DNA of 64,000 bases from Candidatus Saccharimonadales bacterium (GTDB taxonomy: Bacteria > Patescibacteriota > Saccharimonadia > Saccharimonadales > JBGSXW01), in assembly GCA_041751215.1 (NCBI GenBank), contig JBGSXW010000005.1, positions 195,664 to 259,663 of the forward strand, in the 5' to 3' direction. Below, piece by piece: positions 34,286-49,516 of this stretch. Every line of letters starts with the position of its first letter. Positions within the stretch are counted from its first letter, which is position 1. Below the pieces are notes generated by a model. The model made no database searches. It was not told the DNA's origin and worked only from the letters and a program-made list of their open reading frames with translations. Both the position numbers and the translations under genes were made by a program.

Positions 34286-34900
34286 CTAAAGTGCTACAAC
34301 TGTGTAAAGAACTGTCTGAGTATAGGTATCGGGAGCAACCCCGAAGTCAGCTCGAGCTCCATACCAAACGTAGGTTGTGTCGCCTAAGGTTGCACTTGAT
34401 GACGTGGTCTTGATGGTTGCCGCGCTACCAAGCAGGGGCATGCCAGCAAAAGTGAGACTAGATGACGGCTGATTAGTAACGGCAGAGGTTGGGCCAGCCC
34501 CAAAACCAGAGAAATCATCAATTCTATAGCCCCACTCATTGCCCGTTAAAACACTCGGGCTTGCTGGGGTTCCAGAAACAGCCGTCAGCTCATCGACTAC
34601 TCCTTCAAGGGAGTTTTCTGTAGCTGATGATGATTCGAGTGTCATGGTATAGCCTGCAGAGCTGTTTGTGATAACGTTGACTTCATCTTCATCAATTGTA
34701 ATGACACCGTCTACGGTTGGCTCGACCGTTAGGCTAACATTACTTATAGTTGCTATGCTAATTTGGCAAGCATCGTTGTAACTGCACCGCCCGTACATAC
34801 TGCGCCCGTACAAGCTCGCGGAGGTAAGTTCATTCTGGGCAACGACTAGTCCACTCAACAGAACAAACCCCAAAACAAGCCTTGATAACGGTCTCTTCAT
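34286..34900 (-). CDS. secreted WxL-like beta-rich surface protein, paralog 1
   Basis: The start is set at MKRPLSRLVLGFVLLSGLVVAQ (signal peptide). SAGYTMTLESSSATENSLEG, GNEWGYRI, TTYVWYGARADFGVAPDTYTQTVLYTVV parallel the two paralogs at 40.4-41.7 kb and the general WxL-domain layout. Confidence 0.55.
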   Translation of the reverse strand: MKRPLSRLVLGFVLLSGLVVAQNELTSASLYGRSMYGRCSYNDACQISIATISNVSLTVEPTVDGVITIDEDEVNVITNSSAGYTMTLESSSATENSLEGVVDELTAVSGTPASPSVLTGNEWGYRIDDFSGFGAGPTSAVTNQPSSSLTFAGMPLLGSAATIKTTSSSATLGDTTYVWYGARADFGVAPDTYTQTVLYTVVAL

Positions 34901-34961: not shown

Positions 34962-35180
34962 ATGCAGAAGCACTTTGAAGCATTGTCACAGCGACACATG
35001 ACTCGGAGAGAATTTCTCCGCAACGTAGGCTTAGTCACATTATCCATTATTGGCGTCGGACGCTTCATAAAGTATTTGGACCAGCCTGGAAAAACTCCAA
35101 GCGGCCCAACAAGAGGCTATGGGCGCAACTCGTTTGGTGGCCGCGGCCGCAAAGCCGTCAAAGCCCAGTCAAAAACTTAG
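34962..35180 (+). CDS. small protein with an RR-containing hydrophobic N-terminus and a Gly/Arg-rich tail
   Basis: MQKHFEALSQRHMTRREFLRNVGLVTLSIIGVG looks like a twin-arginine-type signal. The start choice is uncertain (34962 or 34998). Confidence 0.35.
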   Translation: MQKHFEALSQRHMTRREFLRNVGLVTLSIIGVGRFIKYLDQPGKTPSGPTRGYGRNSFGGRGRKAVKAQSKT

Positions 35181-35257
35181 TAACTTATATCTGTGAAAAA
35201 GTACTTTGAGAGGTGTTTTTCTGCTAGAATAATGCTAATGACTTGGGGAAACAAATA

Positions 35258-37708
35258 ATGCCTAGACTACCCATACCTGGTGGCGACGAAGATACTTGGG
35301 GTGATATCCTCAATGAGTTCTTAGAAGTTGAGCATAACGCTGACGGCACTCAAAAGACAGTGGCTGTCACAAAGGGCGGTACAGGGCGAACCACCGGTAC
35401 TACAGCCTACGGTATTATTGCTGCCGGTACGACCGACACTGGAGCTCAACAAACCATCTCGCCCGGCTCAAGCGGCCAAATCCTAAAGTCCAACGGTGCT
35501 AGCGCGCTGGCTTCATTCCAAACTGGCGCACCAGGGGACGTGGGCTTGGGCAACGTTACCAACGACCTGCAGCTCAAAGCAGCTGATCTTGATATTGACG
35601 ATACGCTAGCGGCCAATAGTGACACTAAAATTGCCAGCCAGCAGGCCACCAAAGCCTATGTAGATAACTTGACTATCGATACTGCTCTCAGCACCGCTGG
35701 CCAACTACTAAAGTCTACTGGCCCAAGCACACTTCCAGCTTTCTCTACTGGCGCACCAGGCGATGTGGGGCTTGGTAATGTTACGAACGACCTCCAACTG
35801 AAAGCCGCTGATCTTGATATCGACGATACGCTAGCGGCCAATAGTGACACTAAAATTGCCAGCCAGCAGGCCACAAAAGCCTACGTAGACACTAATGTTT
35901 CTGGCATTGACGCAGACATCACTACCCTCGAGTCCAAAACTACACCCCTTGATGGTGGCATCTATTTGCGTGACCCCAATTTGCAAGCCTGGTTTGATGA
36001 TATCGATGATCCGGTGGCTAACCCTGTCGACCTGGTGGTTATTGGTGACTCTATTGCCCAGCTTTCTGCCTGGCCAGACGTATTGTATGGACAGCTGGCC
36101 ACTCGATTCAACGTGAATAACAGCAAGACAGTTACTCCAATCGTTGGTTTAAGACACCCCGCCTCAGGTATTGGCATCCCCAAGTTCACCTCTACCATTA
36201 ACGGCACCCAGGTAAGCGGTGCTGGGTCTGGTTTTGCCGGTTGGGCAGTGACTATGACTAATGGCCAGTCTAACGAAACAGTTCATATCTGTGATGGGGT
36301 ATTTATTATCTGGACAGAAGGTACTGGATCACTAATAGTGAAGGATGGTGGGTCTGGCGGTAGCACTGTTGCTACTATTGACACCAGTACTGGCAGTGGC
36401 TATAGCAACATTACGTCTATAGATCTTACGACCTACGCCAGCCACACTATTTACATAGAGTCTTCTGGTAACACCAAGCTTGAGGCTGTTATGCCAACTG
36501 TAGGGAACCGAACGGTGGGAATTCGCGTCTGGCGGGCTGCTCACGCTGGGTACACCACCGCCGGTTTTAACGATCAGCCGGAGTACGCTCTTGATTTTAT
36601 TGATAAACTCAAAGTTCTTTCGGGTAGAGAGCCTCACGTAATCGTGGCCACCGGCTATAACGACGCTGACGGTGCAACCTACGAAACTGAGATAACCGAA
36701 CTGATTACCACCATTCAAACTAAAACTACCGGCTCAATTGCTCTTTGGGTACCTTGGGGTAGGGCCGTGCCACAAGAGCGTCCAACACGAGCCAAACAGA
36801 TAGCTGAAAGCATGGGGTTGGGTCTAATTGATGCCAACAGAGCCTTCGGGAGTGTCTCCAGTGTTGCAGATTTAAACAACCTATCGGATGATCACATTCA
36901 TCCCAATAACAATGGTGTTGCAGCTCTCGCCACGCAGGCGCTGGCGGTATTAAGTGGCGATCCACTCGGCTCGCTCGTGACCATGATTCAGGGCAACACT
37001 GGTCTACAGTTTCGTGGCAACCTAACCGGTAACGTTACGGGTAATGTGACTGGTGCCTTTGACCTGGACTTAGGGGCAACAGGACGCTTGCAAGCAGCTA
37101 ATATATTCGGTTATCCTGGATTAACGCTACATAACGACTCGGCTGACGCTCAAGCATCAATGGCCTTCTACCCAGCCGGCCTAGCCGCATTCTTGTCTTA
37201 TCCAGCTGCATCACTTGCTTTTGGAGCTGGTGGAGCTACGTCACTTGATGTAGCGTTGTCTCGGTCTGCAGCAGGAGTTTTAACAGTCTATGGGGGGTCT
37301 GGCGCATCCCTCGGAAATATTGTGACAAGTTTAATTCGAAATAGCGCTGGTTCACCAGAATCAGTAGTCAGCGCACCAGTTGGTGCAATCTGCCACGACA
37401 CCACAAACGGTGATTTATACGTGAAAGAATCAGGCACGGGCAATACAGGTTGGGTGGCTTTAAGCACAGGAGGGGGTGGTGGATCTGTTTCTGACACCGC
37501 ATACGCCGACTCATGGAATGGGGTAACAACTGACGCGCCATCAAAGAACGCGGTATACGATGCCCTTAACACCAACGGCAAAGGGTTTGTAAATCACGGC
37601 TCAACTGCTAGTACCGCCAGACCGGAAGGCTTCGCATCGGTCGAATGGTACGGTACAGTCGAGCCAGATAACATAGCAGCAGGAGATACTTGGATTGACC
37701 CAAGTTAA
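35258..37708 (+). CDS. phage tail-fibre-like protein with a central SGNH/GDSL hydrolase domain
   Basis: The N-terminus MPRLPIPGGDEDTWGDILNEFL and the motifs DTKIASQQATKAYVD (x2), LYVKESGTGNTGWVAL and AYADSWNGVTTDAPSKNAVYDAL resemble actinophage minor-tail/tail-fibre proteins. VVIGDSIAQ (the GDS block) and DDHIHPNNNG (DxxH) define the SGNH esterase. ATG 35258 is preferred over TTG 35243. Confidence 0.7.
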   Translation: MPRLPIPGGDEDTWGDILNEFLEVEHNADGTQKTVAVTKGGTGRTTGTTAYGIIAAGTTDTGAQQTISPGSSGQILKSNGASALASFQTGAPGDVGLGNVTNDLQLKAADLDIDDTLAANSDTKIASQQATKAYVDNLTIDTALSTAGQLLKSTGPSTLPAFSTGAPGDVGLGNVTNDLQLKAADLDIDDTLAANSDTKIASQQATKAYVDTNVSGIDADITTLESKTTPLDGGIYLRDPNLQAWFDDIDDPVANPVDLVVIGDSIAQLSAWPDVLYGQLATRFNVNNSKTVTPIVGLRHPASGIGIPKFTSTINGTQVSGAGSGFAGWAVTMTNGQSNETVHICDGVFIIWTEGTGSLIVKDGGSGGSTVATIDTSTGSGYSNITSIDLTTYASHTIYIESSGNTKLEAVMPTVGNRTVGIRVWRAAHAGYTTAGFNDQPEYALDFIDKLKVLSGREPHVIVATGYNDADGATYETEITELITTIQTKTTGSIALWVPWGRAVPQERPTRAKQIAESMGLGLIDANRAFGSVSSVADLNNLSDDHIHPNNNGVAALATQALAVLSGDPLGSLVTMIQGNTGLQFRGNLTGNVTGNVTGAFDLDLGATGRLQAANIFGYPGLTLHNDSADAQASMAFYPAGLAAFLSYPAASLAFGAGGATSLDVALSRSAAGVLTVYGGSGASLGNIVTSLIRNSAGSPESVVSAPVGAICHDTTNGDLYVKESGTGNTGWVALSTGGGGGSVSDTAYADSWNGVTTDAPSKNAVYDALNTNGKGFVNHGSTASTARPEGFASVEWYGTVEPDNIAAGDTWIDPS
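35474..35892 (+). repeat. intragenic tandem duplication (2 x 225 nt, 75 aa) within the tail-fibre-like gene
   Basis: GQ(I/L)LKS..GAPGDVGLGNVTNDLQLKAADLDIDDTLAANSDTKIASQQATKAYVD occurs twice. The 3' ~75 nt of each unit are nearly identical at the DNA level, whereas the 5' parts differ at synonymous sites. Confidence 0.85.
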
Positions 37709-37714
37709 ATAATT

Positions 37715-38593
37715 ATGGCAAAGAGATACGTATATGACGGAACGGATTTAAAACGATTGGACGCACCAATCAGCTTTATGACACCCCTTCTACCCGACAA
37801 TGTGGATCCAGCTACCACTGGTGTTACTGCAATAACCTGTGTTGGTTCAGCTTCTCCTAATCAGTTTTCTACTCCTGGCTCATGGGTAGAGATAGACGCC
37901 TCATTGTCGGCTGATGCAGCCGGAATAATGTTTACACCAAGCGCCAATGTATTCTCCTCAGGCGTTAACACTTCAACTTTGATCCAAATCGGAACCGGTG
38001 CAGCCGCCGCGGAAACAGTGTGGGCTACAGTCTGTGTGTCCCAACTCACAACTTCACCAATTCTCTACATACCTGGATACATTGCTGCTGGCACTAGAGT
38101 TTCGGTTAGAGTGTTTAGTGCAGCACAGACAAGTAAAAGTGCCAGCATAAAGTACACTTTTGCTTCAGGGTCTAACATTTCTGCTCCGACAACCTATAAC
38201 GGGGCGAGTCCGGCCTCAAATGCTCAGGGTGTCAGCGTCCCATGGTCTGGAGCGGTCAACACAGAGGGCGACTGGACAGAAATTGTAGCCTCAACCACGG
38301 ACGACATTGATGTTATTGGTTTATTCGTAGGAACGGCTGGCGACGCTGCGACTGGTAACGCACAGTTTCAGGTAGATGTTGGATACGGCGCAGCTAGCTC
38401 AGAAGTTGCCTTAGCCGAGCATGTTACTTTTACCGTCGGAACAGCTGAGCAGCTCACTCCCCAATCAGTAAACGCATTTCAATTGCCAGAAACTATACCA
38501 GCAGGTTCGCGTTTAGTCGCAAGACTGCAGACTGGAACAGGTGCATCGGTTTCAGCTGTTGACGTAACCTTGGTAACGGCGAAAAAGCCCTAA
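37715..38593 (+). CDS. hypothetical protein with an internal two-domain duplication, coupled to the tail-fibre-like gene
   Basis: 292 aa, Ala/Thr/Ser/Gly-rich. The halves share W-EI-AS...D..GI/L, IQIGTGAAAAE vs QVDVGYGAASSE, and IAAGTRVSVRV vs IPAGSRLVARL. It starts 7 nt after the upstream stop. Confidence 0.5.
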   Translation: MAKRYVYDGTDLKRLDAPISFMTPLLPDNVDPATTGVTAITCVGSASPNQFSTPGSWVEIDASLSADAAGIMFTPSANVFSSGVNTSTLIQIGTGAAAAETVWATVCVSQLTTSPILYIPGYIAAGTRVSVRVFSAAQTSKSASIKYTFASGSNISAPTTYNGASPASNAQGVSVPWSGAVNTEGDWTEIVASTTDDIDVIGLFVGTAGDAATGNAQFQVDVGYGAASSEVALAEHVTFTVGTAEQLTPQSVNAFQLPETIPAGSRLVARLQTGTGASVSAVDVTLVTAKKP

Positions 38594-38678: not shown

Positions 38679-39461
38679 CTAAGTAAACAGTAGAATCAAC
38701 AGCACAATAAAAGCAATCAAGGAAACTAACCTAACAACTCGAGTTAGAGGCACTCCCCAGAGAAGAGTGGTGTTGCTGATTCCAAAATCTGATAACAACC
38801 TGACAGCAAAGAACATCACACCCACTAAAAGAATGCTTGTAACAAAGCCAGTCCAATAAACAATTGGGCTAACTAAGCTATCGATAATGGTTGAGGCATT
38901 TTTGCTATCAATATCAATACGAAGTTTATCCCACAGCCTCTCAATAGGCGGGACATCTTCAGGCTCTTGCTCGCTCGTTACCACCACGCCTCCATCACTG
39001 TCATCGTCCCCAGAGGAAGGATCGGGTACACCGGTATCAATATCTCCACCATCTGAAGGTTGAGCAGCCGGTCTGTATGTTACGACAACAGTACTAACCG
39101 AAGAAGTTTGATTACAGCTAAAATATCCTTCAACACGGATCAAGTTGTCTCCTTCCAGTAGTGCAATCGTAGTTTCAAAATCCCCATCGGGTTCAATAGC
39201 CAACGACTGTGAATAGCTGTCGTTGATGAAAATGTCAATCTGGGTGGTACGCTGAGTTGTGCCGCCTAAGCCTACATTAGCGGTTGAGACGATACTGTCA
39301 GACACCGGCTCCTCTATGGTAATTTCCGGTGTGGATACTTCATCGCACAGTGTTGTGCGCACAGTGTTACTCTCTGCGTGAGCAGTGGAATTTGCTAAGG
39401 CAGAGACTCCGAGCATAACCAGTAACAGAGCATAGAAGCCGGTCTTTGTAAGTAGCTTCAT
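38679..39461 (-). CDS. membrane protein with a signal peptide, an Ig-like beta domain, an acidic linker and a C-terminal multi-TM anchor
   Basis: 260 aa. The order is MKLLTKTGFYALLLVMLGVSALANSTAHA, a beta-rich domain, a D/G/S/E-rich linker and 3 C-terminal TM segments. No family recognised. Confidence 0.5.
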   Translation of the reverse strand: MKLLTKTGFYALLLVMLGVSALANSTAHAESNTVRTTLCDEVSTPEITIEEPVSDSIVSTANVGLGGTTQRTTQIDIFINDSYSQSLAIEPDGDFETTIALLEGDNLIRVEGYFSCNQTSSVSTVVVTYRPAAQPSDGGDIDTGVPDPSSGDDDSDGGVVVTSEQEPEDVPPIERLWDKLRIDIDSKNASTIIDSLVSPIVYWTGFVTSILLVGVMFFAVRLLSDFGISNTTLLWGVPLTRVVRLVSLIAFIVLLILLFT

Positions 39462-39473
39462 GCATCCACCGAT

Positions 39474-40385
39474 TTATTTCTTCTTGTGTGTCGTCCGACG
39501 CTTTTGTGCCTGTGGTTTAACTACAAACCACAGGAAGCCTGCCGCGGCTAAGCCTGCAAGTATCCTCATCAACGAAGTTGGGAACAGGATAATCCACTGC
39601 TGTTCCAATTCTTCTGTGCCATCGAGCAAGCTTACGGTACCGCTCGCTTTGTAAATTCCAAAATACGGCGCACTATCCCAGTCGAAGACTACTCTTCTGG
39701 TTGTGCCTGGCAAGACCAGCACTTGCTGGTTGTTTTCATACTGCTTTTTGCCAAATATACTTGTGTACGTAACGCTAATATCAGATTGGAAGTGAACGTT
39801 ACCGGTGTTTTCAACACGAATGCTACTGGAAACGGGCTGTTTGGTCTGGAGTGTTTCTACGTCCCAGCTCGCCAGGCTACCCTTTTCAATTATGTCACCG
39901 GCGATTGTCATGTAGAGTAGTGACCCGACCCGTTTCTTACGTGCAACACTACTGTCTTCTTCTGGCGGTTGGGTTTCAGCAAACAGCACCGAGTAATGAC
40001 CGCCTGGAGCGGCGTCATCCGGCACCGTTACGGTGTAGCTTACCTCTACGCGCTGACCTGCCTTAAGTGATATCTTTGTTCGTGCAAACTCGACCCATTG
40101 ATAAGCCTCGGTGCGCTCGTTAACTTCAGTGTAATTTGGTTCGTAGGCTTCGTTACTAACAGAGAAAGGCCTTGCGTAAAGTAAGAATGTATATGGCACT
40201 GTACCGTCGTTGATGATAGTCAGTTTACCTTTGGCTTTTTGACCAGCAGCAAGTTCTGGTCTAGCAATTGCCGGAGAAAGAGTTATTCTCTCTTCGTTTG
40301 CCTCTTGAGCGGATGCTCTGTCTGGTATAAAAATCCCCCCTAATATAGCAACGCCAAGCGCTGCAATTATCAGCAGTTTCTTCAT
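39474..40385 (-). CDS. DUF916/DUF3324-like cell-surface protein (CscA-like)
   Basis: 303 aa. A signal peptide is followed by two beta-sandwich-like halves (ITLSPAIARPELAAGQKAKGKLTIINDGTVPYTF...; IRVENTGNVHFQSDISVTY...). The C-terminus has a TM segment plus the basic tail KRRTTHKKK. This layout is the one found next to WxL genes in Firmicutes. Confidence 0.55.
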   Translation of the reverse strand: MKKLLIIAALGVAILGGIFIPDRASAQEANEERITLSPAIARPELAAGQKAKGKLTIINDGTVPYTFLLYARPFSVSNEAYEPNYTEVNERTEAYQWVEFARTKISLKAGQRVEVSYTVTVPDDAAPGGHYSVLFAETQPPEEDSSVARKKRVGSLLYMTIAGDIIEKGSLASWDVETLQTKQPVSSSIRVENTGNVHFQSDISVTYTSIFGKKQYENNQQVLVLPGTTRRVVFDWDSAPYFGIYKASGTVSLLDGTEELEQQWIILFPTSLMRILAGLAAAGFLWFVVKPQAQKRRTTHKKK

Positions 40386-40447
40386 TCACAACTCCTTTTC
40401 TTTCCTGCAACTACGTTAAAGTATACAGTAAAAACTTCACCAGAAAA

Positions 40448-41044
40448 TCAGTTTGTTGTTGCGGTATAAGTAACAGTATCGCTGTAAGTACCGTTCGGGT
40501 TGGAGGTATCGGCCTTAACTGAGTACCAAACTGTTGTGGTGTCGTTCGAAGCAGTTGTACCAGTGGTCTTGATGGTGTTTGCCGCGCCATCGGCTGGTAC
40601 GCCGGCCCACACAGTAGAGCTGCTGGCAACGTTGTCTAGTGCGGAGTAGCTTCCATCAAAACCACCGACAGTCGCGACAGCGTAGCCCCAGGTATTGTTG
40701 GCTAGTGCACTTGGTGAAGCTTGGGTGCCAGCGTGAGCAGGTATGTCGTTGCCGCCGTTAACAAGATCGGTATTGGCATCGCTATCTGCGAGAGTCAAGT
40801 TATATCCAGATGCGTTATTCGTCGAAACGGTTACGGTGTCTGAAGCACTGGTTTGTGAACCACCACTGACAGGAGTGACGTTAAGCGTAACGGTACCGGA
40901 AGAACTGATGCTGATAACAGATGCGATACTGGCATTAATGGTAGTAGTATCAGAGTCAGTAGCAGCCATAACTGTTACGGGGGTTAGTATTAGTGATCCA
41001 AGACCTAAAGAGGCTCCTAGTACTAGTTTGCTTTTTTTACTCAT
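40448..41044 (-). CDS. secreted WxL-like beta-rich surface protein, paralog 2
   Basis: The start is set at MSKKSKLVLGASLGLGSLILTPVTVMA. The N-terminal ~125 aa are almost identical to paralog 3. It ends in TVWYSVKADTSNPNGTYSDTVTYTATTN. Confidence 0.6.
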   Translation of the reverse strand: MSKKSKLVLGASLGLGSLILTPVTVMAATDSDTTTINASIASVISISSSGTVTLNVTPVSGGSQTSASDTVTVSTNNASGYNLTLADSDANTDLVNGGNDIPAHAGTQASPSALANNTWGYAVATVGGFDGSYSALDNVASSSTVWAGVPADGAANTIKTTGTTASNDTTTVWYSVKADTSNPNGTYSDTVTYTATTN

Positions 41045-41115
41045 ATGATGATCGCTCCCTTTTATGTTGTTCTTCGTATGTTGTTTAGTATAAAACATAA
41101 GCTGTTTGGCGGCAA

Positions 41116-41730
41116 TCAGTTTGTTGTTGCGGTATAAGTAACAGTATCGCTGTATGTACCGTTAGGATTGGAGGTATCGGCCTTAACTGCATACCAAACT
41201 GTTGTAGTGTCGCCAGCGGCAGTTGTACCAGTGGTCTTGATGGTGTTTGGGGCACCACTAGCTGGCACACCGGCGTAAGTTATCGTGCTGGTTGTAACGT
41301 TACTCTCAACTGCACCGCCAGTAGAAAAGCCACCGATGCTGTCTACTCGGTAGCCCCAGGTATTGTTGGCTAGTGCACTTGGTGAAGCTTGGGTGCCAGC
41401 GTGAGCAGGTATGTCGTTGCCGCCGTTAACAAGATCGGTATTGGCATCGCTATCTGCGAGAGTCAAGTTATATCCAGATGCGTTATTTGTCGAAACGGTT
41501 ATTGTGTCCGAAGCACTGGTTTGTGAGCCGCCACTGACAGGAGTAACGTTGAGTGTGACGGTGCCAGAAGAACTGATGCTAATAGTTGAGCCGAGGTTGG
41601 CATTAATTGTAGTGGTGTCGGAGTCGGTAGCAGCCAGAACTGTTACGGGTAGTGCAATAACGCCTACCAGCAACAACAATGCGTTTACGCTAAAGAGTTT
41701 CAAGATTGATTTCTGATTTGATTGAGCCAT
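41116..41730 (-). CDS. secreted WxL-like beta-rich surface protein, paralog 3
   Basis: 204 aa with a signal peptide. NASGYNLTLADSDANTDLVNGGNDIPAHAG, NNTWGYRV and TVWYAVKADTSNPNGTYSDTVTYTATTN are present. Confidence 0.6.
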   Translation of the reverse strand: MAQSNQKSILKLFSVNALLLLVGVIALPVTVLAATDSDTTTINANLGSTISISSSGTVTLNVTPVSGGSQTSASDTITVSTNNASGYNLTLADSDANTDLVNGGNDIPAHAGTQASPSALANNTWGYRVDSIGGFSTGGAVESNVTTSTITYAGVPASGAPNTIKTTGTTAAGDTTTVWYAVKADTSNPNGTYSDTVTYTATTN

Positions 41731-46385: not shown

Positions 46386-47069
46386 CTAAAGGGGATAAAA
46401 TCTAAACAGCGCAGAGCCTTGGATTAGTTCAAGTGGCACAGTTCCTAGTCCGGTTCGTGAATCGTATGACCCGCCCGGCGAGCGGTTGTCGCCGGCAACA
46501 AAGATGTGATCAGCCGGAACAAACGTCTCGGCGTCGCCAGTTAGAGGGTGCTTTAGCTGGTCTAGGTAAGCTTCATCTGGATTAAATCCATCAGGGTTAG
46601 CATCGTTATAGACAGTGACAACTCCGCCCCTTAAGACTACTCGCTCGTCGGGGAGTCCGATCACTCGTTTTACAAATTGCTCGTCTGGGTTTTCTGGACT
46701 AATAAAGGTTATGATTTCGCCGCGCTTGGGTATAAAAGTCGAGCCAGTTATCGAAGAAATAGTTCGACCAAAAGCGTTTATGATCAATCGATCGCCGTCC
46801 TCATAAGTCGTTAACATGCTAGTGCCGTCTACCTGGTAGGTTCTTAAGCCCCACTGCAGCAGCGCGACAAAAAATAGCAAGATAAGCACCAAGAAGCCCA
46901 GATATTTTACAAGAGCAGACAGCAGGGTCGGCTCAACATTGCTGATTGTACCTACAGCTCCATCTGCATCTGGGCTGATCTTAGTAAAAGCATCGTAGGC
47001 TTCTGGTCGAATGTGGATGGAGCCGTCGTTGTCGTGTGATGGTTGTTGGTTGGGTTGTGGTGAATCCAT
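46386..47069 (-). CDS. lepB: signal peptidase I
   Basis: GTSMLTT carries the catalytic Ser and VKRVIGLPDERV the Lys box. GDNRSPGGSYDSR is also present. One N-terminal TM segment. Confidence 0.85.
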   Translation of the reverse strand: MDSPQPNQQPSHDNDGSIHIRPEAYDAFTKISPDADGAVGTISNVEPTLLSALVKYLGFLVLILLFFVALLQWGLRTYQVDGTSMLTTYEDGDRLIINAFGRTISSITGSTFIPKRGEIITFISPENPDEQFVKRVIGLPDERVVLRGGVVTVYNDANPDGFNPDEAYLDQLKHPLTGDAETFVPADHIFVAGDNRSPGGSYDSRTGLGTVPLELIQGSALFRFYPL

Positions 47070-47188: not shown

Positions 47189-47797
47189 ATGCCCGCCAAA
47201 AAAAAGCCAGAAACAAGCAAAACTGCTAAGAAGCAGCCAGCACCTACATTAAAGTCATCAAACAAGAATAAACTTCTATTAGCAGTCGTAGTATTAGCGG
47301 TTGCGTTAGTGGCTGGATTCTTTGTTTACAGAAGCCAAGCAGCTACTCACGTAGCTACAGTGGTGGCAACCAACTCGCTTACTTCAGAACGCAATATCAC
47401 AAAGTATAGAAACGGGGCGTTCAGGAAATTATCTGCGAACTTAGGTAAAAGCGCTGTTGATGTTGTGTGGATAAAAAAGGGGTATGATTTTTGGATGATC
47501 GCTCCGACATCAACCGATGGACGGCACAAGGCCTGCTTCGAGCTCTTTCTTTCTAAAAAGGCAACCCAGGTTAGACTTGATGTATACAGGCAGCAAACGG
47601 CCACAAATAATTTTCAGCCTTCGCCTTATATCCTAACGTTCAACGATCCCACGAAGACAATACCGGCTAAAAAGACTCTTCAGACTCACTGTGTTGAGTT
47701 CTACTCAAATATCAAAAATACTAAAGCGTATTATGGTGTCGTGACACCTATTGGCGGCAACGTTAACGTGCGCAAAGTAACCGTAATAAAGCTTTAG
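47189..47797 (+). CDS. secreted/anchored protein of unknown function, tandem family member 1
   Basis: A Lys-rich N-tail and a TM/signal segment end in YRSQAATHVATVVA. Conserved Cys residues are KACFELF and THCVEF. The C-terminus is RKVTVIKL. Confidence 0.6.
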   Translation: MPAKKKPETSKTAKKQPAPTLKSSNKNKLLLAVVVLAVALVAGFFVYRSQAATHVATVVATNSLTSERNITKYRNGAFRKLSANLGKSAVDVVWIKKGYDFWMIAPTSTDGRHKACFELFLSKKATQVRLDVYRQQTATNNFQPSPYILTFNDPTKTIPAKKTLQTHCVEFYSNIKNTKAYYGVVTPIGGNVNVRKVTVIKL

Positions 47798-47806
47798 GGA
47801 ATAGCC

Positions 47807-48355
47807 ATGGCTAACAAAAAAACCAAAAACATTTCTTTACCCAAAAACCGCAAGAAAATCTTGATCTTAATATCAATTCTGCTGGTATCGCTAGTTGGTA
47901 CATTCTTTTTATATCGCAGCCAGGCGGCAACGCATGTTGCGACTATAGTTGCATACCACAATTTTCCGGGCCATCTTAATAGCAAGTATTATCGACCCGT
48001 AACTATTCCGGTAGGCAAGAGCACCGATAAAGCGGTCTGGATAGCTAAAAGTACTACGGCGTACAATACCGGATTCAGCATTAAAAGTGGTGTTAAGTTT
48101 TCATCAGGGGTTTCCTACCGAGCCTGCTTTCAGTTCTACAACAAGAATCCCAATACCATTTTGCTTACAGTTAGCGATGGAGATTACGTTAGGCGTGAAG
48201 TCAATCGGGTCACAGTGAATACTCAGGGTAGCCCAAGTATCCAACAGCGATGCATGGACTTTAGACTTAGCAATCCCAGTTCTGAATTATGGTTTAAGCA
48301 CAAACCACTTGCCTATAACGGGATTTTCTATAAAGTAACCGTAATCAAACTCTAA
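47807..48355 (+). CDS. tandem family member 2
   Basis: The N-terminus is MANKKTKNISLPKNRKKILILISILLVSLVGTFFLYRSQAATHVATIVA. Also RACFQFY, QRCMDF and a C-terminal YKVTVIKL. Confidence 0.6.
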   Translation: MANKKTKNISLPKNRKKILILISILLVSLVGTFFLYRSQAATHVATIVAYHNFPGHLNSKYYRPVTIPVGKSTDKAVWIAKSTTAYNTGFSIKSGVKFSSGVSYRACFQFYNKNPNTILLTVSDGDYVRREVNRVTVNTQGSPSIQQRCMDFRLSNPSSELWFKHKPLAYNGIFYKVTVIKL

Positions 48356-48364
48356 GTAACAACC

Positions 48365-48919
48365 ATGGCTAACAAAAAAACTAACAAGATCTCTTTACCC
48401 CGAAATCGTAATAAAATTCTTGTTATCGCAACAATTCTGTTGGTATCCGTAGTCGGTACGTTCCTGGTATATCGCAGCCAAGCAGCAACGCATGTTGTAA
48501 CTATCGTGGCGAAAGATCAGGCAACTACCCTAGATGGTTACGGTAGCACTGTTAAACTCTTCACAATTCCTGCGGGCAAAGGTACCTTGCCCGGACTCTG
48601 GGTCAAGAAAGGAAAAGGCGTAGGCCTAAGCCACCAAGCTTCTTATGCCAAAGGCGCTACATATCAAGCCTGCTTTGCGCTATATAACACCAAAGACAAT
48701 AAAGTTAGGCTAAAGGTCACAGGATGGAATGGTACTGGCTATAATTCAGACATCGTTGACTTATCTGAACGGATAATCAGCATAGCTGGGCAGAAGAATA
48801 AAACCCAAAGTCACTGCGTTAAATTCAAGCCAGACCAACCTTATTCGCGGGTCATGCTTGGGTATGAGCCACTTGGAATGAATGGAGTTATTCATAAAGT
48901 AACGGTCATCAAACACTAA
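48365..48919 (+). CDS. tandem family member 3
   Basis: The N-terminal 49 aa are about 80% identical to member 2. Also QACFALY, SHCVKF and a C-terminal HKVTVIKH. Confidence 0.6.
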   Translation: MANKKTNKISLPRNRNKILVIATILLVSVVGTFLVYRSQAATHVVTIVAKDQATTLDGYGSTVKLFTIPAGKGTLPGLWVKKGKGVGLSHQASYAKGATYQACFALYNTKDNKVRLKVTGWNGTGYNSDIVDLSERIISIAGQKNKTQSHCVKFKPDQPYSRVMLGYEPLGMNGVIHKVTVIKH

Positions 48920-48931
48920 GAGGAAATAATT

Positions 48932-49516
48932 ATGCCAAGCAAAAAAAACAGCAAGCCCAAGGCAACTCCAAAGACATCCGCTTCAAGCCCAAAATTAAAT
49001 GTTAATAGGGCAACCAAGCAGAAAATACTGATGACGGTAGTTGTACTTCTAGTAGCACTAACAGCGGGACTGTTCGTGTACAGGAGTCAGGCAGCCGCTG
49101 GTGACATCAAGCGTTCCGCCCCACAAATGAACGGGGGAGTTTGTGTCTATGTTAACACCGGTAAAAGCTACAAGTGCATAGAGCGCACCCTGGTAAGACC
49201 GGTAAGCGTAACGATACCTGTTTATAGCGGCAGTAACGGCTCGGCCAAAAAAGTTTGTATTAACGGACGGGATGCGCGCAACGTGATTAACAAAATCCAT
49301 GCCAGTCTTTCAATCCGAAACGGAGTAAACCGAGGCTATGACGACGGAGTAAATGTTCGTTCGGGCTGGGTGCAAAGCTGGAGCTTTGGTTTGCCATCAG
49401 GAACTTCATACGTAACTCTTAAATTTGCTGGTACAAAATCTGGTGGATCAGACAGTTTAGCTCGCATACGCGATGTTGTAATCCGCAATACAAGCAAAGC
49501 CGGCTGTCAGCCGTAA
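48932..49516 (+). CDS. tandem family member 4 (divergent)
   Basis: It has the same N-tail/TM layout ending in VYRSQAAAG. The body differs and carries 4 Cys, ending in VVIRNTSKAGCQP. Confidence 0.5.
   Translation: MPSKKNSKPKATPKTSASSPKLNVNRATKQKILMTVVVLLVALTAGLFVYRSQAAAGDIKRSAPQMNGGVCVYVNTGKSYKCIERTLVRPVSVTIPVYSGSNGSAKKVCINGRDARNVINKIHASLSIRNGVNRGYDDGVNVRSGWVQSWSFGLPSGTSYVTLKFAGTKSGGSDSLARIRDVVIRNTSKAGCQP

Follow-up and report, generated by a model that had tools for sequence, protein, structure and literature searches.

A phage-type fibre gene in a Saccharibacterial chromosome

We analyzed a stretch of 64,000 nucleotides (nt), here called the window, from a Candidatus Saccharimonadales bacterium (GenBank assembly GCA_041751215.1, contig JBGSXW010000005.1, positions 195,664 to 259,663). 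It holds a gene for a fibre-esterase of 816 amino acids (aa) at 35258..37708 on the + strand. The evidence supports well that its product is a receptor-binding fibre of phage type and that the gene has become fixed in the chromosome of a Saccharibacterium. Equally well supported is its composition: at the N-terminus a docking motif, then a shaft of repeats, an SGNH carbohydrate O-acetylesterase of the Ape1 kind into which a sugar-binding sandwich is inserted, and an exchangeable tip, followed by a cognate partner gene that encodes a double jelly-roll. The same grade applies to the wider finding that purifying selection maintains a family of these cassettes in Saccharibacteria, at conserved positions in the chromosome, and that they trade tips with phages. 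Scans of metagenome and genome collections yielded few loci, which are given L numbers below (proteins have P numbers).

The open reading frame (ORF) extends from 35243 to 37708, and we place the start of the protein at the ATG 35258, since M[AP]RLP stands at residue 1 in 56 of the 213 relatives collected. A sequence-only reading of this DNA had recognized a tail-fibre-like protein by a set of short motifs, and all of them are present: MPRLPIPGGDEDTWGDILNEFL at aa 1, DTKIASQQATKAYVD twice (aa 122 and aa 197), LYVKESGTGNTGWVAL at aa 720, AYADSWNGVTTDAPSKNAVYDAL at aa 748, and GDTWIDPS at aa 809, together with the SGNH blocks VVIGDSIAQ (aa 260) and DDHIHPNNNG (aa 544). BLAST mapping of 82 relatives resolved the protein into a mosaic of modules. 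Direct scans of the protein returned no PHROG or NCBIfam match and nothing relevant in a sequence search of the PDB, and its Pfam hit to Lipase_GDSL (PF00657) stayed below threshold (20.1 bits versus a cut-off of 23.6). Searches of the protein for a signal peptide, a transmembrane segment, and a wall-sorting motif found none (maximum 19-residue hydropathy: 1.26). Just 5' of the gene lies a promoter-like site (TTGAGA-16-AATAAT; 35206..35233, +), a consensus match only (10/12) of a type whose number does not exceed the shuffled expectation. ORFs antisense to the gene (e.g., 35446-35652 and 36332-36718) were rejected as frame shadows, as their relatives are the opposite strand of the same gene.

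Modules of the fibre

The protein opens with an acidic 34-aa motif, M[AP]RLPxPGxDxxxWGxxLNxFLxVxHNxDGxLK (35258..35359, +), which is always found at residue 1. On phage contigs verified through PHROGs by terminase, portal, capsid, and tape-measure genes, the motif opens the protein encoded next after the tape measure (L032 and, by resemblance alone, L030) or next to a tail tubular protein that precedes it (L034). Its only matches in a set of 50,697 genomes of cultured phages are to Streptomyces phages (BRock, GiJojo, and others; E ~7e-9). Because it opens tail proteins in verified phages, the motif is best read as a phage tail-protein N-terminal module, of the type common to virion tail proteins, and not as a cellular signal. 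All chromosomal relatives carry it and five phage-borne relatives of the core lack it, from which arose the idea of a cell-specific export adaptor; this was rejected on the same grounds.

The shaft (aa 35-212) consists of modules that recur at 70-84% identity in proteins with Pfam PTR (phage tail repeat), Collar, Phage_tail_C, BppL_N, T7 tail fibre, and collagen matches. It includes two in-frame copies of a 75-aa unit, one at aa 63-137 (35444..35668, +) and one at aa 138-212 (35669..35893, +), which repeat detection aligned as 35474-35664 versus 35699-35889 (191 nt, 83% identity, spacing 225). Divergence between the copies is uneven. The first 27 codons differ at 41/81 nt, mostly non-synonymously, and thus encode largely different protein; codons 28-48 differ at 12/63 nt, all synonymous codon by codon (synonymous divergence, pS, 0.67); and codons 49-75 differ at 6/81 nt, with a perfect run of 53 nt (35597-35649 = 35822-35874).

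The sequence-only reading had described this as a recent tandem duplication with near-identical 3' ends (~75 nt) and synonymous differences further 5', suggestive of ongoing gene conversion or length variation. The duplication is real and its 3' part is nearly identical, but the differences are synonymous only in codons 28-48, and the age has to be revised: because synonymous divergence is near-saturated, the 225-nt duplication is old and maintained by selection on the protein. Only the short 3' tract looks recently homogenized. Length variation fits the family, in that P0018 and P0088, the closest relatives by N-terminus, carry a single repeat copy and other members carry 1 to 7; shaft length therefore varies within the family. 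In the AlphaFold2 monomer model, the shaft (aa 36-236) has a predicted local distance difference test score (pLDDT) <50, a low confidence that bears on any assignment as a trimeric shaft.

The SGNH esterase core (aa 241-580; 35978..36997, +) is recognizable from its catalytic residues and its fold. The blocks GDS265, HAG431, GYN468D, and D545HIH548 supply the catalytic and oxyanion residues Ser265 (36050), Gly431 (36548), Asn468 (36659), Asp545 (36890), and His548 (36899), all encoded on the + strand. Asp264, Ser265, Asn468, Asp545, and His548 are invariant in 17/17 relatives, and Gly431 is invariant in the eight closest and nearly so in the 17. The fibre scores below the Pfam gathering thresholds of both PF00657 and PF13472, and several of its relatives carry precomputed hits to one or the other. 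AlphaFold2 predicted an alpha/beta/alpha SGNH fold for aa 240-580, mostly with pLDDT >80, and a CBM-like beta-sandwich (about aa 290-430; 36125..36547, +) that is inserted between SGNH blocks I and II and hence between Ser265 and Gly431. The embedded SGNH esterase of the sequence-only reading is thus supported by both invariant residues and fold.

Foldseek searches against the PDB placed Ape1, the peptidoglycan O-acetylesterase of Campylobacter and Neisseria, first (8gkd and 4k3u; E 1e-12, template modelling (TM) score 0.64-0.67), with ~365 aligned columns that span both domains. Matches to Ape1, CE2, Axe2, and GDSL lipases reached a probability of 1.0; CE2 esterases and CBM6 modules ranked next after Ape1, and the insert gave fold hits of the CBM6 and CBM35 type. 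In CjApe1, a CBM35-type sandwich is likewise inserted in the SGNH fold after the block I helix (10.1101/2021.09.23.461501). At the sequence level, the fibre is only 12-17% identical to Ape1, and it lacks the hydrophobic N-terminus of a protein with a Sec signal peptide. Among predicted viral structures (BFVD), the best matches of the core are minor-tail and tail-fibre proteins of Gordonia, Arthrobacter, and Rhodococcus phages (E 1e-18 to 1e-13). In the cultured phage genomes, the core found only Gordonia minor tail proteins and one Arthrobacter esterase, all weakly.

The region after the esterase (aa 597-737) is beta-rich and includes GDLYVKESGTGNTGW, a motif that matches the C-terminus of a tailspike-like protein of the TM7 phage DolZOral124. 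The stretch shared with this C-terminus (aa 691-734, ...GDLYVKESGTGNTGWVAL; 37328..37459, +) is 50% identical (tblastn, E 3e-4) to gene CQ476_46 of MG269973, annotated as a "pectate lyase superfamily domain protein". The C-terminal tip module (aa 696-816; 37343..37705, +) is exchanged as a cassette with phages: aa 696-814 are 54% identical to the C-terminus of a fibre on phage contig L038 (E 1e-28), and tip sub-motifs recur in many proteins. The partner gene (37715..38593, +) starts 6 nt past the fibre stop codon and encodes a 292-aa protein of two tandem jelly-roll beta-sandwiches. It is 52% identical to the gene after the L038 phage fibre, and homologues also follow fibre genes on phage contig L039 (two copies). 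The partner family comprises 93 proteins without a Pfam domain. We found no signal peptide or membrane segment in the partner protein, and its model (pLDDT 91) gave only generic double beta-sandwich matches (PHM and PNGase F, TM score ~0.3). In a second case, the tip of a 160-aa mini-fibre at chromosomal locus L017 is 66% identical to the tip of a protein from phage contig L013, and LamG-type genes follow both. The fibre therefore has the exchangeable C-terminal tip and cognate downstream gene of a phage tail fibre or receptor-binding protein, and the exchange of modules between chromosomal cassettes and phages is ongoing.

Chromosomal setting and retention

The larger ORFs scanned across the window are cellular or lack a match to phage families. 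They include genes for MscS, TrmB, a Mur ligase, an ABC transporter, Dus, Lnt, signal peptidase, a class II (Asp/Lys/Asn-type) aminoacyl-tRNA synthetase, CorA, and a P-type ATPase. Relatives of the MurC-like ligase are 50-70% identical, and all the named ones belong to Candidatus Saccharibacteria or Saccharimonadales; the three genome-collection relatives of the fibre are likewise from metagenome-assembled genomes of Saccharibacteria. Pfam and PHROGs detected no capsid, portal, terminase, tape-measure, or integrase gene among the larger ORFs across the 64 kb. For the ORFs scanned, the earlier statement that no prophage-type genes lie within 15 kb on either side of the fibre extends to the whole window. 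In these scans, neither attachment repeats nor other phage structural, replication, or lysis genes marked out a prophage, and the three tRNA genes of the window are at least 14 kb from the fibre cassette. The gene is not encoded in a phage structural module but sits among housekeeping and surface genes.

Across all loci, we counted nine chromosomal copies at seven sites with cellular neighbours, all with the N-terminal motif: one each in the window, L007, L016, L017, and L028, and two each in L008 and L018. Their ORFs are intact at 620-890 aa, and the catalytic residues are intact in every copy. The orthologues of L017 and L018 are 77% identical in amino acids (non-synonymous divergence, pN, 0.16; pS 0.83), and TatC of the same pair is similar at 74%. 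By these values, the chromosomal copies are under purifying selection and behave as functional genes. Genomes of ~1 Mb contain two or three paralogues: in the genome under study, P0003 lies on the same 262-kb contig outside the window, and L008 has three paralogues.

The genes that accompany the fibres vary. Three tandem genes with the MxRLP motif occupy L008 8325-14496 (starts 8325, 10001, and 12310), the last two of which are esterase fibres that are 51% identical. The second genes of other loci differ and encode a pectate-lyase-like protein (L007 12256-13851), a 691-aa beta-helix-like protein (L016 12055-14130), or the 160-aa mini-fibre and a LamG protein (L017 13473-15286). The chromosomal loci appear to hold interchangeable phage receptor-binding modules.

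In the window, the cassette interrupts a WxL-like surface cluster. Directly upstream and divergent from the fibre gene is a secreted protein of about 204 aa (34286..34900, -), which is 51% identical to L016 8526-9137(-), a gene that flanks the L016 fibre gene in the same manner. The rest of the cluster (38679..41730, -), identified with Pfam, encodes an Ig-like/transmembrane protein, a WxLIP_PGBD-like protein, and two proteins paralogous to the one of 204 aa, and it is syntenic with L016 14181-16617(-). The flanking genes of this second species are 39-74% identical to those of the window, but its fibre is merely 29% identical. Altogether, the cluster has three paralogous secreted proteins (~205 aa), the WxLIP_PGBD-like protein, and the Ig-like protein with its C-terminal transmembrane segment. 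It is broken at the same point by different fibre cassettes in the two species, which suggests a hot spot of cassette replacement. Synteny of the window is with L016 only; no neighbouring genes are shared with L007 or L008. Elsewhere in the window, four tandem paralogous ORFs (47189-49516, +; 182-202 aa) with a basic N-terminus and a signal-anchor "...LYRSQAATHV" adjoin a type I signal peptidase (S26) gene (46386-47069, -) and may encode secreted or pilin-like subunits.

Phage-borne relatives

The esterase core is 41-44% identical over ~470 aa to proteins on the phage contigs L011-L014, L026, and L027. These contigs (20-40 kb) carry genes for either the Gp19 adaptor, capsid, tail tube, TMP_3, and Dit, or terminase, portal, Mu F, protease, and tube. 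The phage-borne proteins P0008, P0014, P0015, and P0017 have the same catalytic residues as the window core, and none of the phage-borne core copies carries the N-terminal motif. The contigs have a Saccharibacteria-like GC content of 42-46%, and L013 shares three syntenic genes (28-52% identical) with DolZOral124 (MG269973). We consider that these low-GC phages probably infect Saccharibacteria. A more distant tail protein (31% identical) is encoded between tape measure and endolysin on a siphovirus contig of 72% GC (L001).

Homology places every module of the fibre among phage tail-type proteins and none in a non-phage family, the outcome on which the sequence-only reading had staked its claim. 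That reading had pointed to actinobacterial phages in particular. The N-terminal, core, and fold matches to actinophages agree with this, but the closest relatives are in the low-GC putative Saccharibacteria phages. The phage-type nature of the modules likewise stands, while the location on a tail is uncertain: genes of the fibre or partner family also occur in the company of genes for the head, with portal/Mu F or adaptor on one side and protease/capsid on the other (L026 10001-11953, L011 10001-12103, and L039 8599-11781). Since these are encoded outside the tail module, some relatives could be head fibres.

P0008 (1041 aa; L013/L014 10001-13126) has two tandem esterase cores, 31% and 44% identical to the window core, and is followed by a LamG-type gene. 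Genes for glycosyltransferase, epimerase, Stealth, pyruvyl-/rhamnosyl-transferase, and methyltransferase proteins are present on putative Saccharibacteria phage contigs (L011 4149-6239, L026 1-4233, and L027 2220-5393 and 8184-8708), a hint that the phages may remodel host surface glycans. L027 also carries Cpn10/Cpn60, like the TM7 phage.

Linkage to twin-arginine translocation genes

A small ORF of 72 aa (34962..35180, +) is situated upstream of the fibre gene at a distance of 77 nt; L007 shows the same gene order. The product has a twin-arginine motif (TRREFL), a single hydrophobic helix, and a tail that is basic and rich in Gly/Tyr, and it is related to the family named "Tat system-associated protein", where Tat denotes twin-arginine translocation. 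Its score against NCBIfam NF038009 (TatB_1) is 36.8 bits (E 3e-9), under the curated cut-off of 100 bits, as are those of its homologues (37-48 bits, E to 8e-13). Counterparts of 57-65 aa are encoded between tatC and tatA at L007 (9785-9982), L017 (13278-13451), L018 (12738-12914), and L028 (7447-7641), with a canonical SRREFL motif, one hydrophobic helix, and a basic Gly/Tyr tail (GYGGG). The window copy is diverged but intact (tblastn with the L028 small ORF, E 1.8e-7). At these four loci, the fibre genes adjoin the series tatC-small ORF-tatA on one strand with short gaps, and in L007 and L017 the motif-bearing genes are inside the tat operon, between the small ORF and tatA. The 64-kb window contains neither tatC nor tatA.

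The fibre does not have the features of a Tat substrate: no twin-arginine signal is present, and its start (MPRLPIPGGDEDT) has one Arg and no hydrophobic region. No general pathway other than Tat is known to export proteins and complexes in the folded state. Since fibre and partner lack a signal and Tat exports folded proteins, co-export of the fibre with the small protein is an attractive, though speculative, possibility, drawn from the gene neighbourhood. Two further observations concern these loci. The basic tail of the small ORF and the acidic N-terminal motif of the fibre are complementary in charge. Proteins of ~1500 aa with purple-acid-phosphatase and PhoD_N-like matches are encoded directly after tatA in L017 (15692-20257) and L018 (13267-17889), in an arrangement that recalls phoD-tatAd/Cd of Bacillus; no clear twin-arginine motif is visible at their N-termini.

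Possible functions of the fibre

The reading that we favour, with a little less than even confidence, is that a phage receptor-binding esterase fibre has been domesticated and acts on a glycan of the envelope. Tip and partner protein would bind a cell-envelope glycan, and the centre formed by Ser265, His548, and Asp545 would then take O-acetyl groups off the bound glycan. Because the tips are 54-66% identical to those of phages that probably infect Saccharibacteria, the ligand would most likely be a Saccharibacterial envelope glycan used by the related phages. The cell would thereby strip or mask its own phage receptor, or remodel its own wall; this self-envelope or anti-phage role is a more doubtful part of the proposal.

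Several points weigh against domestication as an esterase fibre. Any action outside the cell would have to do without a signal peptide, transmembrane segment, or sorting motif. Neither the virion-docking N-terminus nor the long shaft, both retained, is needed for a simple receptor-destroying enzyme; the shaft model is of low confidence, and a trimer is only presumed. The substrate call depends on fold, given the low identity of the core to Ape1, and the hosts of the related phages are deduced solely from GC (0.42-0.46) and three genes shared by one of them. As to export, the fibre lacks a twin-arginine signal, the small ORF scores under its NCBIfam cut-off, no Tat gene is found near the loci L008 and L016, and one ancestral insertion may underlie all four of the tat-linked loci. 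Finally, the cultured model Southlakia appears to lack the fibre family; its supplement lists no TatC and just one SGNH protein, of 190 aa.

An unlikely but substantial alternative is that the fibre is directed at the host: the episymbiont would display it as an adhesin and enzyme, bind the envelope of its actinobacterial host, and de-acetylate host peptidoglycan or wall polysaccharide in aid of attachment or feeding. Those Saccharibacteria that have been cultured live on Actinobacteria and depend on several adhesins and glycan-binding proteins at their surface (PMC10633639), a lifestyle that such a fibre would suit. The gene lies within a cell-surface cluster in both the window and L016, the Ape1-type fold acts on peptidoglycan, and the matches to cultured phages, apart from the TM7 phage, are all to phages of Actinobacteria. 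The closest relatives and the shared tip cassettes, however, are in the low-GC phages that probably infect Saccharibacteria rather than Actinobacteria, and the similarity to actinophages is remote (25-31% identity, weak E-values). The collection of cultured phages may also be biased towards actinophages. The missing export signal counts against host contact as well.

That the gene is a selfish phage leftover, either a recombination fragment or a reservoir for phages with no function for the cell, seems improbable to us. It would explain why every module is phage-type, why tip and partner are 52-66% identical to phage genes, why the GC of the gene is 0.51 compared with 0.47 for the window, and why the fibre has diverged so much further between syntenic loci than its flanks, as repeated replacement predicts. 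It does not account for full-length ORFs with invariant catalytic residues in all copies, for purifying selection between species at the same locus, or for two chromosomal sites conserved across deep divergence (TatC 59-74% identical). Nor does it fit two or three copies in ~1-Mb genomes, or the lack of any other phage gene, integrase, or repeat boundary nearby. A functionless remnant is accordingly disfavoured by synteny, selection, and copy number.

The linkage to tat genes admits an extension of the domesticated-fibre reading that we regard as decidedly improbable. The fibre would fold, and probably trimerize, in the cytoplasm; its acidic N-terminal motif would bind the small ORF product; TatAC would export the pair in "hitchhiker" fashion; and the fibre, tethered at the surface, would bind and de-acetylate envelope glycans of the host or of the cell itself.

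We give very little credence to a part supplied in trans, whose N-terminal motif would attach the fibre to an unrecognized tail-like particle encoded elsewhere or to the virion of a phage, whether infecting or satellite. The motif does open phage tail proteins immediately after the genes for tape measure or tail tube, every chromosomal copy retains it, and the protein would need no export signal if it were released by lysis, but no tube, sheath, baseplate, capsid, or lysis gene is found in the 64 kb of the window or within 10 kb at the other chromosomal loci, and likely Saccharibacterial phages with the same esterase core use other N-termini.

Comparison with known systems

The nearest known proteins are the SGNH minor-tail, tail-fibre, and "esterase" proteins of actinophages (Gordonia Sekhmet gp30, Arthrobacter Thunderclap minor tail protein, and Rhodococcus ReqiPoco6 tail fibre), which share the fold of esterase plus inserted sandwich. 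The window gene differs from them in that it belongs to a cellular chromosome with no phage genes around it, and in its N-terminus, shaft, and tip. It has C-terminal motifs and tip cassettes in common with tailspike-like proteins from DolZOral124 and with the esterase fibres that putative Saccharibacteria phages encode; the phage copies are without the MxRLP motif and several are encoded among head genes, whereas the chromosomal copies all carry it and several are next to Tat or surface-protein genes. Ape1 of Neisseria and Campylobacter (4k3u and 8gkd) has the same SGNH domain with a CBM35-type insert after the block I helix, a Ser-His-Asp triad, and a Gly/Asn oxyanion hole, but that periplasmic enzyme is a monomer of ~390 aa and carries a signal peptide.

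The concept of an SGNH fibre that strips O-acetyl groups from a receptor polysaccharide is familiar from the deacetylating tailspikes of Gram-negative phages (Pectobacterium Possum and PP99, and Acinetobacter Aristophanes). These are virion parts of Proteobacteria phages, and their likeness to the fibre is one of concept; a sequence relationship was neither tested for nor found. G7C gp63.1 is another polysaccharide-deacetylating phage tailspike. In Escherichia coli, folded partners without signals are exported by Tat as "hitchhikers" (hydrogenase and DMSO reductase subunits). The parallel is by gene neighbourhood only, in that a folded, signal-less fibre is encoded beside a small twin-arginine protein, tatC, and tatA; the small ORF may be a mere Tat accessory protein. 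Esterase-bearing phage fibres are thus already known, and the literature that we searched yielded no description of chromosomal, selection-maintained, Tat-linked fibre cassettes in Saccharibacteria.

Implications for ultrasmall episymbionts

The factors implicated in how ultrasmall episymbionts recognize and manipulate other cells are limited to pili, a type IV secretion system, and a small number of adhesins (PMC10633639). The conserved chromosomal fibre family adds candidate surface-recognition molecules for Saccharibacteria, and its tips and esterase could serve as probes for glycans on the envelopes of Saccharibacteria or their hosts. A true link to Tat would constitute a new export route for folded phage parts. 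Surface display of the fibre by way of Tat, the improbable extension described above, would give cells a new means of presenting phage receptor-binding proteins and ultrasmall episymbionts a new class of organelle for interaction or defence. The exchange of tips with TM7-type phages would be a natural record of the arms races between phages and hosts over receptors in the candidate phyla radiation.

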